This document shows, in pieces, positions 4,061-60,054 of a DNA stretch of 64,000 nucleotides (position 1 is its first letter; the number at the start of each line of letters is the position of its first letter). A model generated the notes under the pieces. The model did no database searches, was not told the DNA's origin, and saw nothing but the letters and a program-made list of their open reading frames with translations. Source of the DNA: Chiloscyllium plagiosum (taxonomy: Eukaryota); contig NC_057749.1 in NCBI RefSeq assembly GCF_004010195.1, positions 9,373,492 to 9,437,491 on the forward strand. The letters are read 5' to 3'. The position numbers and the translations under genes were made by a program.

Positions 4061-4260
4061 ACCGAGAGTGTAGTGCTGGAAAAGGATAGCAGGTCAGGCA
4101 GCACCCGAGGAGCAGAAGAAACTGCGTTTCTTCCTGATGAAGGGCTTAAACCCGACACGTCGATTCTCCTGCTCCTGGGATGCTGCCTGATTTGCTGTGC
4201 TTTTCCAGCACCACTCTACTCTTGACTCTGATCTCCAGCATCTGCAGTGCTGACTTTCTC
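4061..4260. mobile_element. Fold-back PLE mini-element, family A
   Basis: Inverted arms; TSD ctaccaccagag (4049-4060) / ctatcaccagag (4261-4272); hammerhead GAAA mutated to GACA. Confidence 0.85.
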
Positions 4261-12834: not shown

Positions 12835-14267
12835 AGTTTGCATATTAAATGAGTTGTGCTCATATTAAGGAAAGTGAAATTGAACCAAACCCATTCATAC
12901 AATGAAATCCAGTTGAGAATGAATGCAAATTGAGTCAACTGGGATACAAACATGACAGAAATCCTACAGGGAAGGTCTGTTTACACTTTAGAGTCTGCAA
13001 AGATCAGGTTCTGCTGAGTCAGCCTAACAAAAAATTTAATGCAATCTCCAGTGTTTTCCCTTGTGCATGTGAAGGATTGTCCATAAGTACCAGTTGGAGA
13101 AAAATAGATCAAGAGAAATTAATTGGGAGAGTCATAGATGGAAAATATTCCAGGATTGCATAGATCTCACTGTCTGTACTGATGAGACTGTCTTTCTATT
13201 GTGATTCCAACTTTCAATAATTTGTTTATACTTTGTTTCTGGCATTCATAGCCACTTTATCTTGGGTGCCAAAATTGATGCCAAATGCAAATATAAATCA
13301 ACCTGGAGTGCAGTGCAGAAACAGCAATATGATTGCTTGAGATAGGTGGACTCCTGCTGATAAGTTGGTCTCACACTGATAACGACAGTGTTCGTGAGAA
13401 ACATTACTCATTTGGCGCCAGTGTGAATGTGACAGTGAATAACTCTGTTGCATCACTGAGATATGAAAAATGTTCCATTCTGACTTGTGTGGTGTGCAAA
13501 ATGTCTGGCAGTAGGGTCACCATTTTTATCCACTATACTGATGCCACAAAGTCTATCCAGACACCATCACTAGATTTCAAAATTGACATTGAGCCAAATG
13601 AGGAGACTTTATGGAAGATTATGAAATCCTTGGTCAAAAAGTTAGGTTATAAGAAGCATCTTAAGGGGAATGAAGTGGCAAATCCATTTGAGACTAAGTC
13701 GAAGGCAAGACCTTCAATGTTGCAGTGAGTAGAAGTGGGGAAGTTGACAAATGTTGAAGGAATACCAACATTTTAAAAATGTATTTGCAAAAATATACTT
13801 TATTCATAAGTTAGAGATACAATACAAAAGTTTACTTCAGACATGCCTTGGAATACAGTGAAATTATGACATTCCTCATTTTGTGCTCCAATCCATTTCA
13901 AGAAAAATAACCTTTACTAAACATGACAATAAATATCTACATTCCAATTAAAGCGATGAGGGTATCTTGAATATAACAGACCTTCACTATATTTTACATC
14001 AGAGTGTCTAGGGCTGTAAGAAGTTCCATCACCAAGACCTTTCTTAAAACAGAGTACTTGAAACAAGCAACTTGAAGCAAATCTGACAGGTTTCTTAGAT
14101 GTTGATGATCCCTGCACCAGCCTTTCACACCCATCTACCTGCAACCAATGAGAATTACTTTAAAACAAATGTGGCATCACTTTTTTTATTTCATAAAAGT
14201 TCATTATATATGTTCATTGTCACTGGAGCAGGTCAGTTCTGTGCAGTCTTTGCATATGGAGAACAAA

Positions 14268-14684
14268 GCCTAAAATGTGTTGCTGGAAAAGCGCAGCAGG
14301 TCAGGCAGCATCCAAGGAGCAGGAGAATCGACATTTCGGGCATGAGCCCTTCTTCAGGAATGAGGAAAGTGTGTCCAGCAGGCTAAGATAAAAGGTAGGG
14401 AGGAGGGACTTCGGGGAGGGGCATTGGAAATGCNNNNNNNNNNNNNNNNNNNNNNNNNNNNNNNNNNNNNNNNNNNNNNNNNNNNNNNNNNNNNNNNNNN
14501 NNNNNNNNNNNCTATCGCATTTCCAATGCCCCTCCCCGAAGTCCCTCCTCCCTACCTTTTATCTTAGCCTGCTGGACACACTTTCCTCATTCCTGAAGAA
14601 GGGCTCATGCCTGAAACGTCGATTCTCCTGCTCCTTGTATGCTACCTGACCTGCTGTGCTTTTCCAGCAACATATTTTTGGCTC
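14268..14684. mobile_element. Inverted pair of family A PLE ends around an assembly gap
   Basis: Near-perfect ~165-bp inverted arms flanking Ns (14434-14511). Perfect 15-bp TSD catatggagaacaaa at 14253-14267 and 14685-14699. Hammerhead core at 14593-14620. Confidence 0.88.
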
Positions 14685-15004
14685 CATATGGAGAACAAAC
14701 AAATATTGGAGTTTGACTTTCCCAACAGTTCCAACAATCAAACCCAAAGAATTTTCTTACATATGCCAAATCTTATTTACATATATTGGAGGCACTGGGA
14801 GGGTCTGATAACTGAATGGACCCCCATTGCATTTTGGCTGAAAGATCTTAGATAGTGATCTTTCCCCACTGCAACTTGGATTGTGCCAGCCTGCCACATT
14901 CAATCGAGGTCAACGCCTTGAACTGGAAGACCAACAGGATTCAGGCAGACTAAAGAGTGTCTTTCACTGAGTTGACAGTCCTCCATGTGAGGTTAATGTT
15001 TGTC

Positions 15005-18361: not shown

Positions 18362-18665
18362 GTTTAATACAATATGTGCTAACCATCCCTTCTACATAAC
18401 AGGATAAGAGATGAGCTGTCTCCATCTTTTAATAGCTCATGAATCCAACACATTCAGGGGAGAGATTTGTCTTGGGCAATGAAATGAAAATCGCTACCAG
18501 GTCAGTTGGCTGATATTCAGTTCTATTGTAGTGAAAGAGAGTATTTTATACTCTCAGTATTTTAACTACTTTAGTGATGACATTACAAAGAATTATCAAA
18601 TGAACCTTGCCCAGGTAGTGGTTTTATGGCATTAAAATTCACCTACCTAAACTTTGTTAGCTCAG

Positions 18666-18887
18666 ATTCTGGATCAGTGGTGCTGGAAGAGCACAGCAAT
18701 TCAGGCAGCATCCAACGAGCAGCAAAATCGACGTTTTGGGCAAAAGCCCTTCATCAGTTTATTCCTGATGAAGGGCTTTTGCCCGAAACATCGATTTTGC
18801 TGCTCGTCGGATGCTGCCTGAATTGCTGTGCTCTTCCAGCACCACTGATCCAGAATCTGGTTTCCAGCATCTGCAGTCATTGTTTTT
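18666..18887. mobile_element. Fold-back PLE mini-element, family A, with a hammerhead on each strand
   Basis: ~92-bp near-perfect inverted arms with a 7-nt spacer; TSD actttgttagctcaga on both sides. Confidence 0.92.
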
Positions 18888-18954
18888 ACTTTGTTAGCTC
18901 AGAGCATGTGCTCACCCAAGGAGCAATCGTCTTCTTCAGCTGTACGCTCATTAC

Positions 18955-19312
18955 ATCCAGCTGAGGTTACCATGAAGGATTTGCCATCTCAATCTCTCTC
19001 CTCACCTAAGGAAATGGTGACCCTCAGGTTAAACCACCACCAATCAGCTCTCTTTAATGAGAAATGGTAGCACAGTGGTCTGGAAGGTCTATGCTAACAT
19101 AACTTTAAGGGGATTGGTTTAGCTCAGTTGGCTGAACAGTTGATTCAGTGTGGGTTCAGTTGCTGCACCAGTTGAGATTACCATGAAAAATTCTCCTTCT
19201 CAACCTCTCCCCTTTGTCTGAGCCATGGTGACCCTCAAGTTAAGCTAACACCAGTCATATCTCTGTAATGAAAAAGCAGCCCTAAGATCTGGTAAGACTT
19301 TGATGACTTTAA
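18955..19312 (+). mobile_element. Two adjacent diverged copies of an old tRNA-headed SINE
   Basis: 'gaggttaccatgaa...atggtgaccctcaggttaa' occurs at ~18963 and ~19174. The second copy has A/B-box-like 'tagctcagttgg...gggttcag'. A related relic lies at 60645-60860. Confidence 0.55.
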
Positions 19313-31786: not shown

Positions 31787-32147
31787 AAGACAAATGAAGA
31801 TAGGGAGAAATTGTATTCATTGGCAGAAGGGTTGAGAACCAGAGGACGCCCATTTAAGGTGATTGGCAAAAATGCCATGGCGAAATTAGAGAAGAGAGCT
31901 ATTCACAAAAATGCAACAAGAGGTTAGGATGTAGAACACACTGTCTGTGTGTGTGGTGGAGGCAGACTCAGCTCAAGCTTTCAAAAGGAAATTGGATAAG
32001 CTCATGAGGGCATAAGAAACATTCAGGATGACGAGAAAGAGTAAGGTTGCCCAAGTTGGTCTTGCAGATAGACACACAAATGGACCAAATATATTATAAC
32101 CATTCTCTGGAGTTGTGGTCCTGTTCGCCGAGCTGGGAATTTGTGTT

Positions 32148-32186: not shown

Positions 32187-32497
32187 ATTAGATTAGATTA
32201 GATTACAGTGTGGGAACAGGCCCTTCGGCCCAACAAGTCCACACCGACCCGCCGAAGCGAAACCCACCCATACCCCTACATTTACCCCTTACTTAACACT
32301 ACAGGCAATTTAGTATGGCCAATTCACCTGACCCTGCACATCTTTGGATGGTGGGAGGAAACCGGAGCACCTGGAGGAAACCCACGCAGACACGGGGAGA
32401 ACGTGCAAACTCCACACAGTCAGTCACCTGAGGTGGGAATTGAACCCGGGTCTCTGGCGCTGTGAGGCAGCAGTGCTAACCACGGTGCCACCGTGCT
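32187..32497 (-). mobile_element. HE1-type SINE
   Basis: Reverse complement of the 12537 family with an (attag)n tail. Confidence 0.92.
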
Positions 32498-32789
32498 GCT
32501 TCTGTGATCTTTCCTCTGCCATTTGTAGCACTTAAGCACATCGACCTGGACCCAATATACCCGACCATTGCAACGGACAGCTGGAACTGACAACCGGAAG
32601 CGGCAGATTCAAACCACTACAAATGCCAGAGGAAAGATCACAGAAGCGCTTCACAGGAGGCTCCCAAGCTCTGAGGATGTCACCTAGACAGGGGACGAAA
32701 TGTCTGCAACACAAATTCCCAGCTCGGCGAACAGGACCACAACAACGAGCACCCGAGCTACAAATCTTCTCACAAACTTTGAACATTCT

Positions 32790-34171: not shown

Positions 34172-34535
34172 GAAACAAGAAAAAAACAAAAGTTGCTGGA
34201 AAAGCACAGCAGATCTGGCAGCATCTGTGCAGAGAAATTAAAGTTAACGCTTCGGGTCCGATGAAGGGCTTTTGCCCGAAACGTCGATTTCGAAGCTCCT
34301 TGGGCGCTGCCTGAACTGCTGTGCTCTTCCAGCACCACTAATCCAGAATCTGGTTTCCAGCATCTGCAGTCATTGTTTTTACCTCGTTTCGGGTCCGGTG
34401 ACCGTTCTAAGGAAGGGTCACCGGACCTGAAACGTTAACTCTGATGTCTCTGCACAGATGCTGCCAGACCTGCTGAGCTTTGTCAGCATTTTTTCCCCTC
34501 TGATTTACAGCATCGGCAGTTCTCTCGGTTTATCT
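34172..34535. mobile_element. Fold-back family B element with a nested family A unit (34261-34384)
   Basis: Family B inverted arms; family A unit inserted with duplication cg(c/t)ttcgggtccg at 34248-34260 and 34385-34397. Confidence 0.88.
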
Positions 34536-40633: not shown

Positions 40634-40821
40634 CACAAACAGAACTTGCTACAAAAGCTCAGTAGGTCTGGCAGCATCTGTGGAGAGAAATCAGAGTTAA
40701 GATTTTGGGTCCAGTTAACTCTGATTTCTCTCCACTGATGATATCAGACCTTCTGAGCTTTTCCAGAAATTTCTGTTTTTGTTTCTGATTTCCACTATCT
40801 GTAGTTCTCTCGGCTTTTATT
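40634..40821. mobile_element. Fold-back family B element, hammerhead centre deleted
   Basis: Inverted arms; perfect 14-bp TSD tggtcagatagaat at 40620-40633 and 40822-40835. Confidence 0.88.
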
Positions 40822-51053: not shown

Positions 51054-51932
51054 TTGCCTCCACCACAGAACACACCAGATGGCTTCCTTCTTTAGAGACC
51101 GCAATTTTCCTTCCCACGTGGTTAAAGATGCCCTCCAACGCATCTCGATCTCGTCCACATCCCACACCTCCACCCTCAGACCCCACCCCTCCAACTGTAA
51201 CAAGGACTGAACACCCCTGGTGCTCACCTTCCATCCTGCCAACCTTCGCATAAACCAAATCATCCGCCGACATTTCCGCCACCTCCAAACAGACCCCACC
51301 ACCAGGGATATATTTCCCTCCCTACCCCTTTCTGCCTTCCGCAAAGACCGTTCCCTCCATGACAACCTGGTCAGGTCCACGCCCCCCTACAACCCACCCT
51401 CCCATCCTGNNNNNNNNNNNNNNNNNNNNNNNNNNNNNNNNNNNNNNNNNNNNNNNNNNNNNNNNNNNNNNNNNNNNNNNNNNNNNNNNNNNNNNNNNNN
51501 NNNNNNNNNNNNNNNNNNNNNNNNNNNNNNNNNNNNNNNNNNNNNNNNNNNNNNNNNNNNNNNNNNNNNNNNNNNNNNNNNNNNNNNNNNNNNNNNNNNN
51601 NNNNNNNNNNNNNNNNNNNNNNNNNNNNNNNNNNNNNNNNNNNNNNNNNNNNNNNNNNNNNNNNNNNNNNNNNNNNNNNNNCCACCCTCCCCCCACCTAT
51701 CACCTTCATCCCCTCCCCCACTCACCTATTGTACTCTATGCTACTTTCTCCCCACCCCCACCCTCCTCTCACATATCTCTCCACCCTTCAGGCTCTCTGC
51801 CTGTATTCCTGATCAAGGGCTTTTGCCCGAAACGTCGATTTTACTGCTCCTCGGATGCTGCTTGAACTACTGTGCTCTTCCAGCACCACTAATCCAGAAT
51901 CTGGTTTCCAGCATCTGCAGTCATTGTTTTTA
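51054..51932 (+). mobile_element. Penelope-like element fragment, family A, spanning an assembly gap
   Basis: QMASFFRDRNFPSHVV...LTFHPANLRINQIIRRHFRHLQTDP..PLSAFRKDRSLHDNLVRS (PLE linker); terminal repeat at 51805-51932 with CUGAUCA (mutated core). Confidence 0.9.
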
Positions 51933-59896: not shown

Positions 59897-60054
59897 GGCA
59901 AAACTGAGGACTGCAGAAGCTGGAAATCAGAGTCTAGATTAGAGTGGTGCTGGAAAAGCACAGCAGGTTAGGTAACATCCGAGGAGCAGGAAAATCGACG
60001 TTTCGGGCAAAAGCCCTTCATTAGGAAGGGCTTTTCCAGCACCACTCTAATCTA
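59897..60054. mobile_element. Fold-back PLE mini-element, family A
   Basis: Inverted arms; degenerate 16-bp TSD gactccatcactctaa / gaccccaccaccctaa; core CUAAUGA mutated. Confidence 0.82.

Follow-up and report, generated by a model that had tools for sequence, protein, structure and literature searches.

At positions 18651–18903 of a 64,000-nt stretch of the Chiloscyllium plagiosum genome (contig NC_057749.1; this stretch is the window, in whose coordinates all positions without a prefix are given), a short insert folds back on itself, with a hammerhead motif in each arm and a tail at one end only. Is such a fold-back a mobile unit that is transcribed and copied as a whole, or is it made anew when a larger element integrates? 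The first-pass annotation of this DNA had offered both readings: repeated products of 5′ inversion during integration of a Penelope-like element (PLE), or an independently mobilised class of "retrozyme-like" hairpins. We conclude that the insert is very probably a dead-on-arrival, extremely 5′-truncated insertion of an endonuclease-encoding PLE, both arms of which were created de novo in one integration.

The insert, its flanks and its hammerhead motifs

The insert between the two 16-bp direct repeats is 221 bp long (18667–18887), against the 222 bp first claimed, and the 16-bp target-site duplication had been read correctly (Table 1). The near-perfect inverted repeat of ~92 bp with a single tail was also borne out: a repeat finder returned arms of 95 nt (18663–18757 and 18765–18859) that are 97% complementary and separated by a spacer of 7 nt, with a tail of ~32 nt on one arm. 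CAGA, the end of the left duplication, pairs with the start of the tail and forms a 4-nt microhomology at the outer junction of the inverted arm. Once it is set aside, the arms proper are 18667–18757 and 18765–18855. They differ by three mismatches, every one a CpG transition. The unpaired centre, TTTATTC, is also found in long copies of the element, which read ...CTGCCTTTATTCCTGATGAAGGGC. Since the centre is the element's own sequence, with no filler, the arm with the tail exceeds its partner by 7 nt. The tail at this locus measures 32–35 nt; the family form ends in ...TTTTTACC, and its final AC may overlap the target duplication here. The predicted RNA fold of the insert is one uninterrupted 95-bp hairpin (−181 kcal/mol, z = −24).

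Table 1. Components of the fold-back insert and of the duplication that encloses it
Feature	Position	Strand	Remarks
Left target-site duplication copy	18651..18666		Exact direct repeat ACTTTGTTAGCTCAGA; the final 4 nt (CAGA) match the element too
Inverted arm without tail	18667..18757	-	Antisense copy of the PLE 3′ module, from the inner RT (reverse transcription) start site to the CUGAUGA box
Unpaired centre TTTATTC	18758..18764	+	Element sequence immediately upstream of the CUGAUGA box
Sense arm, CUGAUGA box to ...CCAGAA	18765..18855	+	Minimal hammerhead motif at 18765-18792
Single tail TCTGGTTTCCAGCATCTGCAGTCATTGTTTTT	18856..18887	+	PLE-type 30-40-bp tail, at one end only
Right target-site duplication copy	18888..18903		Exact direct repeat, 16 bp

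Public sequencing runs, represented by contigs from organism A and the related organism B, were compared with window positions 18450–19100. In a 472-nt contig of run X9 (organism B), 18450–18650 joins 18888–19038 directly, with one 16-mer and no insert, as in an empty site. The exact 16-bp duplication together with this empty site shows a single insertion. The junction between left flank and left arm is present in contigs of the organism-A runs X1 and X5, which belong to different studies and reach 18690 and 18689, respectively; run X1 may be the assembly's own source sample. The centre and right junction are bridged by no read and by no contig among those listed from the runs examined, so this part of the structure is as given by the assembly alone. 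An assembly artefact, in which a chimeric or collapsed read gave a false palindrome, would be compatible with that gap and with the N runs at the centre of some fold-backs (14434–14511 in the window, and loci L007 and L061). It is nevertheless extremely improbable, given the left junction in runs from two studies, the exact duplication that brackets the whole structure, the empty site in organism B and the existence of 1,549 loci that share the design, each with its own flanks (see below). Just to the right of the insert, at 18956–19065, the depth climbs to thousands in all three DNA runs, which indicates a second high-copy repeat there.

A ribozyme had been assigned to each strand of the insert. 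At the level of the family, the motif reads CTGATGA-A-GGGC-TTTT-GCCC-GAAAC-GTC, and many copies read CTGATGA-A-GGGCTTTTGCCC-GAAAC-GTC; the family motif has the features of a minimal PLE hammerhead, which neither copy at 18667–18855 retains in full. The plus-strand copy reads CTGATGA-A-GGGC-TTTT-GCCC-GAAAC-ATC, with a G>A change at position 16.2 (18790). In the minus-strand copy, which reads ...GCCC-AAAAC-GTC, the change affects G12, a catalytic residue of the hammerhead, and is seen as a T at 18737, where C is common in family reads of the runs examined. The exact pattern CTGATGA..GAAAC is found in the plus-strand arm only. Thus, the assignment holds for the motif but not for an intact core, a CpG transition having damaged each copy. 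Neither arm includes sequence upstream of the CUGAUGA box, and the predicted long hairpin would bury both motifs. We regard the hammerhead motifs at 18667–18855 as relics and the element as one without function of its own.

The minimal hammerhead (min-HHR) of metazoan PLEs has been described as having an extra base between positions 9 and 10.1, a G10.1–C11.1 pair, no helix III and a palindromic 15.2–16.2 (Cervera and de la Pena 2014, PMC4209133). As far as the portion of that paper used here allows a comparison, the family motif shares the CUGAUGA box, one extra nucleotide ahead of helix II, the G10.1–C11.1 pair, a 4-bp helix II, the GAAA, a palindromic ACGU without a helix III loop and the GUC cleavage triplet. 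Unlike the published motif, the locus has A at 16.2 (plus-strand copy) and A at G12 (minus-strand copy), and helix I pairing is weak (~2 bp), long copies included, with no match to an Rfam model: a scan of the whole window returned no hammerhead family at gathering score or at E ≤ 10. The hairpins gave weak Rfam matches to microRNA precursors (E 0.009–0.2, far below gathering scores); we treat these as chance products of any long hairpin, and a microRNA-precursor identity was rejected.

The parent family

An exact-pattern search of the 3.56-Gb genome counted 14,371 perfect matches to the 41-nt tail, compared to 0 for the reversed control, and the family has at least as many tail copies. Many copies in a genome-order sample extend upstream of the hammerhead through ~200 nt of common non-coding sequence, and then into N runs. 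Such runs, 0.3–3 kb long, lie just upstream of the 3′ non-coding part at 51410–51681 in the window and at seven loci elsewhere (L041, L050, L055, L057, L069, L134 and L135). They occupy the place where the remaining reverse transcriptase and the endonuclease should be in long copies.

Two long copies (L086 and L087) contain ORF remnants with reverse-transcriptase sequence just upstream of the N region, hammerhead and tail. The L086 fragment matches the Pfam family RVT_1 at E 0.0012, below the curated cut-off. The L087 fragment has no Pfam match of its own; in a protein search it matched 165 proteins at E ≤ 1e-5, the best with 90% identity. RVT_1 is present in most of the longer proteins among the L087 matches listed, and RVT_1 and GIY-YIG (PF01541) occur together in 23 of the 120 matching proteins listed (120 of 165). 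In one homologue (P0034), RVT_1 (389–576) is followed by GIY-YIG (809–888), both above their cut-offs. In all long copies fetched, the endonuclease stretch of the family's own ORF consists of N; GIY-YIG is thus seen only in homologues and in another nearby PLE, from which we infer it for the family. That other PLE, an unmasked ORF remnant situated a few kb away from a long family copy (L089:435–1211, plus strand), matches GIY-YIG weakly (E 0.015). A UPRTase match on an ORF piece ahead of the N stretch (L049; Pfam E 0.011) was judged to be due to chance.

Based on these data, we interpret the insert as the 3′ end of an endonuclease-type PLE, with the GIY-YIG assignment resting on the relatives named above. 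Each arm is a copy of the ~90 nt that immediately precede the inner RT start site. The family may be undescribed in open papers, as a search for shark Penelope-like hammerhead elements gave one review only.

An open frame of 44 codons runs through arm and tail (18758–18889, plus strand, frame 0). Its sole protein match is a predicted centrosomal-protein isoform of a bamboo shark, with 88% identity over 75% of the query. This isoform looks like an exonised or mis-annotated copy of the element. A coding role for the frame was rejected, the single match being a predicted host protein with an incorporated copy and no evidence of coding having been found in it.

Fold-backs in the window and across the genome

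The design of the insert had been reported to recur at eight further sites in the window. Six of these (4061, 19390, 59897, 40634, 3745 and 35322) are indeed fold-backs with one tail each and with different turning points; the target duplication is readable at 4061, 19390, 40634 and 35322, and was not read at 59897 and 3745. A seventh, at 34172–34520, is a fold-back of family B with a single arm of family A nested in its centre (34260–34382, 92% like the query arm), the nested arm being flanked by a 13-bp duplication. The description proved too broad at two sites: at 40634 neither arm has a complete hammerhead, and at 32113 a gap of ~470 bp, which holds other repeats, separates the arms.

The interval between the family-D arms at the last site (32187–32650) contains a short (ATTAG)n run and sequence resembling a tRNA-related SINE. 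It also includes a 31-nt inverted repeat with 97% complementarity (32498–32528 and 32617–32647). A larger fold-back of an older, related family (14267–14683) is located at 14254–14700, with a 15-bp target duplication (CATATGGAGAACAAA). Its arms are at least 167 nt long and reach ~110 nt upstream of the hammerhead; neither has a tail, and a 78-nt N run (14434–14511) lies exactly at its centre.

Three samples independent of the query structure were taken from the genome: tail sites in genome order, CTGATG-to-CTGATG loci and a marker lineage. The genome-order sample consisted of 70 tail sites along one contig (C1) and was classified partly by eye; a permissive alignment over-extended the arm ends and a single reference under-extended them, and the final classes used visual inspection too. 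So classified, 22 of the sites are fold-backs, 36 hold single or long copies that lack an inverted arm, and the other 12 adjoin N runs. An inverted arm is thus present in about a third of the sampled tail-bearing copies, no two of them with the same inner junction. Total length varies from 105 to 259 bp among the 22 fold-backs, in 17 of which the tail-less arm stops 32–38 nt before the tail end. Target duplications of 9–15 bp were found by script at 18 of 23 loci (the 22 fold-backs and L048), and they vary from 9 to 17 bp over all fold-backs read.

The second sample rests on an exact-pattern search, which identified 1,549 loci whose two arms both extend to the CTGATG box, the gap between the arms being no more than 20 nt. 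Among the first 50 listed, 46 different centres were observed, one of which (GAATTC) was seen three times and two of which were seen twice. All 15 loci that were fetched have exactly one tail. Flanking repeats of 10–17 bp were read at 14 of them, the repeat at L076 being ambiguous. Some centres (L011, L040 and C1:82129532) hold an extra short inverted piece, CCCTTC between two CTGATG boxes, as if the template had been switched more than once.

The third sample is defined by a rare 24-mer duplication junction, found at 32 sites, that marks one source lineage. It includes six head-to-head pairs, spaced by 86, 99, 281, 1,442, 2,291 and 3,187 nt. Those spaced by 86 and 281 nt are fold-backs that turn at different points and have separate target duplications, and both marker loci that were checked (L131 and L132) have target duplications of their own. 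The 2,291-nt (L134) and 3,187-nt (L135) pairs have N interiors of 1.9 and 3.0 kb, respectively. The tail is on one arm only in the 3,187-nt pair and in the 1,442-nt pair (L133), which is without an N run. We read the kilobase-spaced pairs with N interiors as long copies with an inverted terminal arm, and one lineage gives a series from kilobase-spaced inverted pairs down to mini fold-backs. Since the inner junctions differ between copies, each fold-back appears to have been made anew at integration.

These samples decide between the two readings of the first-pass annotation. Its observation that breakpoints differ per copy was confirmed for centres, total lengths and the arm spacings within one lineage. 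The independently mobilised class, for which shared inner junctions were sought and not found, is abandoned; repeated production by PLE 5′ inversion is upheld by the variable breakpoints, by the separate 9–17-bp duplication of each fold-back and by the PLE parentage. Copying of the whole fold-back as a unit, as a SINE-like or retrozyme-like ORF-less hairpin that propagates itself by being transcribed and copied by the PLE machinery, is thereby largely refuted, and we consider it very unlikely. It would explain why the 221-bp query matches the best 40 of 1,630 candidate loci over its full length at 91–97% identity, why these 40 loci have identical outer ends and two recurrent arm-specific CpG differences, and why a few centres recur (GAATTC three times among 50). 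However, what singled out these 40 loci was their close match to this very copy, so that the recurring arm asymmetries reflect ascertainment bias. At one CpG, A was frequent in the arm with the tail and G in its partner, with the opposite at a second CpG. The recurring CpG states are the query's own and the genome-order samples show mixed states, and arm asymmetry was rejected as a sign of unit propagation. In the unbiased sample the centres are nearly all different (46 of 50), and neither the range of fold-back lengths nor the six arm spacings of the marker lineage agree with a copied unit, the RNA of which would, moreover, have to begin precisely at the hairpin base. The two RT start sites of PLEs account for the fixed outer ends, on the evidence drawn from PMC11167929. 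No evidence of unit copying was found in the three genome samples.

An origin at the DNA level, with no reverse transcription, is suggested by the long terminal inverted repeats, the short centre and the flanking direct repeats, which are reminiscent of a MITE, a Foldback-type DNA transposon or a palindrome arising from replication or repair. This origin is contradicted by the flanking repeats, which vary from 9 to 17 bp and have no fixed length, by the asymmetric ends with a tail on one side only, by the identity of the arms with the 3′ end of a reverse-transcriptase element and by the single-arm, 5′-truncated copies, which are commoner than fold-backs; we regard it as highly improbable.

Formation of the fold-backs and their significance

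A PLE protein from the anole has been reported to cut and extend both target strands in vitro (Frangieh et al. 2024, PMC11167929). In the part of that study drawn on here, the RNA has two neighbouring internal start sites for reverse transcription, set apart by the length of the tail, and the hammerhead lies ~100 nt upstream of the start sites, its cleavage being unnecessary for insertion (PMC11167929). Leaning on this in vitro work, we propose that the PLE protein would cut the two target strands 9–17 bp apart, and that DNA synthesis on the template RNA would begin at two internal sites close to each other, the outer giving rise to the tail-bearing arm and the inner to the tail-less arm. Both syntheses would often halt at the 5′ edge of the hammerhead, and the two cDNA ends would then be joined with little or no extra sequence.

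The 5′ ends of 12 of 35 single or long copies are located 120–140 nt from the tail end, where they form a cluster at the 5′ edge of the hammerhead. A second accumulation of 5′ ends, 98 nt from the tail end where the hammerhead is predicted to cleave, was considered and dismissed, as the individual junctions scatter over 72–108 nt. In hand-curated coordinates, the inner ends of the two arms are coupled: in 13 of 21 fold-backs no more than 12 nt separate them, compared to 5.7 expected with shuffled pairing (P ~0.0003). Both arms share rare lineage markers, and the unpaired centres consist of the element's own sequence, from either arm. The arms being nearly always of the same source lineage and their inner ends coupled, either the two cDNAs were synthesised alongside each other on a single RNA species, or one arm served as the template for the other. 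Chimeric fold-backs, with arms from different subfamilies, were found among the 40 best matches (L005) and among the 15 fetched loci (L080). Exceptions to the single tail are L007 and L025, each with two tails, and the fold-back at 14267–14683, with none.

In a snap-back of the same PLE origin, a single cDNA would turn and copy itself, with only one target strand priming on the RNA. The coupled inner ends, the centres made of element sequence from either arm, the markers common to both arms and the exactly one tail in 15 of 15 loci are all as expected of such a course, as are the inverted arms that do not start at an RT start site (L075, 17 nt long; L052, L080 and L096). An independent choice of start site on each strand, such as is reported by Frangieh et al. 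for the anole PLE, would make fold-backs with two tails or none common, and the one-tail count in the centre-sampled loci speaks against it. The coupled inner ends and perfect palindromes also fit copy-back better than two independent syntheses. In contrast, the chimeric arms of L005 and L080 are impossible by copy-back and fit two templates instead. Perfect palindromes without an unpaired centre (e.g., GGAATTCC and ...AAAAGCTTTT...) would be sterically awkward for a cDNA that turns on itself. In addition, the inner RT start site is the exact end point of 17 of 22 inverted arms, which priming at that site would predict and a copy-back along the first cDNA would not, and the anole PLE extends both strands in vitro, according to the data consulted in PMC11167929. 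The coupled ends and the single tail speak for copy-back or for two syntheses in tight coordination; chimeric arms, palindromes without a mismatch and the exact inner-site start of most inverted arms speak for priming of both strands. On balance, the snap-back seems to us possible but unlikely.

We tentatively suggest, as a reading that may well prove wrong, that the fold-backs of this genome, thousands in number, are a fossil record of PLE integration in vivo, in which a dimeric particle copies one RNA species from both broken ends, starting at the outer site for one strand and at the inner site for its partner, after which the two cDNAs prime on each other. The same lineage in both arms, the coincident inner ends and the single tail would, if this is true, all follow from such a particle, and the rare chimeras would mean that two template molecules are possible.

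Among known systems, 5′ inversions of L1 reportedly arise by twin priming (Ostertag and Kazazian 2001), in which the second target strand is said to prime on the RNA via microhomology. As in twin priming, the inverted part lies within one target duplication, and a 4-nt microhomology is present here at the outer junction of the inverted arm. Unlike in L1, where the inverted part is said to derive from upstream of the direct part, both arms here cover the same region of the element, which calls for two template copies or copy-back.

The closest counterparts are PLEs themselves; the kind of arrangement is already known, and what is found here is a very abundant shark family of that kind. PLE units have been described with an inverted 5′-truncated copy adjacent and a 30–40-bp tail at one end only (Craig et al. 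2021, PMC8557442). The shark family resembles endonuclease-positive PLE units (Penelope/Poseidon/Neptune; Evgen'ev and Arkhipova; PMC8557442), as characterised in the sections of this source drawn on here, in its high 5′ truncation and head-to-head inverted 5′-truncated copy, in the one-ended tail of that length and target duplications of variable length, and in the hammerhead motif of the terminal module, the reverse-transcriptase ORF and the GIY-YIG domain of its homologues. It differs in that both arms are cut to ~90 nt, which leaves only the hammerhead-to-tail module; the arrangement is published there for longer units, and minis are not singled out in the same sections (PMC8557442). With anole Poseidon it would share the two neighbouring start sites spaced by the tail, the cutting and extension of both strands, a hammerhead ~100 nt upstream of the start sites and an insertion that does not depend on hammerhead cleavage (PMC11167929). 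No joined head-to-head product is reported in the part of the anole work drawn on here, and neither start site showed a strand preference there, whereas the genomic copies in the shark almost always have exactly one tail (PMC11167929). Non-LTR retrozymes of animals, tandem hammerhead repeats that are regarded as non-autonomous PLE derivatives (bioRxiv 10.64898/2026.07.22.740005), are similarly short, ORF-less, hammerhead-bearing and related to the PLE terminal module. In the portion of that preprint used here, they are direct tandem repeats that can yield a unit-length circular RNA after two cleavages, in contrast to the inverted pair with decayed cores of the shark fold-backs (10.64898/2026.07.22.740005).

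A role of the hairpins as dsRNA, in siRNA production or as ADAR substrates, is plausible by analogy. For rearranged Penelope copies with inverted repeats in transformed D. melanogaster, siRNAs have been reported to map to the inverted regions, in the part of PMC3681739 drawn on here. No RNA run was listed as containing the locus. In a poly-A single-cell run (~2% of the run), the element is covered in both orientations and its flanks are not, with 768 of 771 reads only partly on the element. These reads come from other copies of the family and were set aside as evidence on this locus.

For annotation, the analysis implies that such hairpins belong with truncated PLE insertions and should not be labelled a MITE, a microRNA-like gene or a mobile element of a new class. 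How PLEs integrate is still poorly understood. The young tail copies of this family, which exceed 14,000 and have an inverted arm in about a third of cases, are an inexpensive source of statistics on the choice of start site, on turning points and on the use of templates, and these could guide in vitro work. If the fold-backs are indeed a fossil record of integration in vivo, they would capture a joining step so far unseen in vitro. By analogy with the Penelope case, perfect hairpins of ~95 bp inside transcribed regions would be candidate sources of siRNA in sharks, and, should the fossil-record reading be true, at least 1,500 loci with near-perfect hairpins of 90–110 bp could feed small-RNA or editing pathways.
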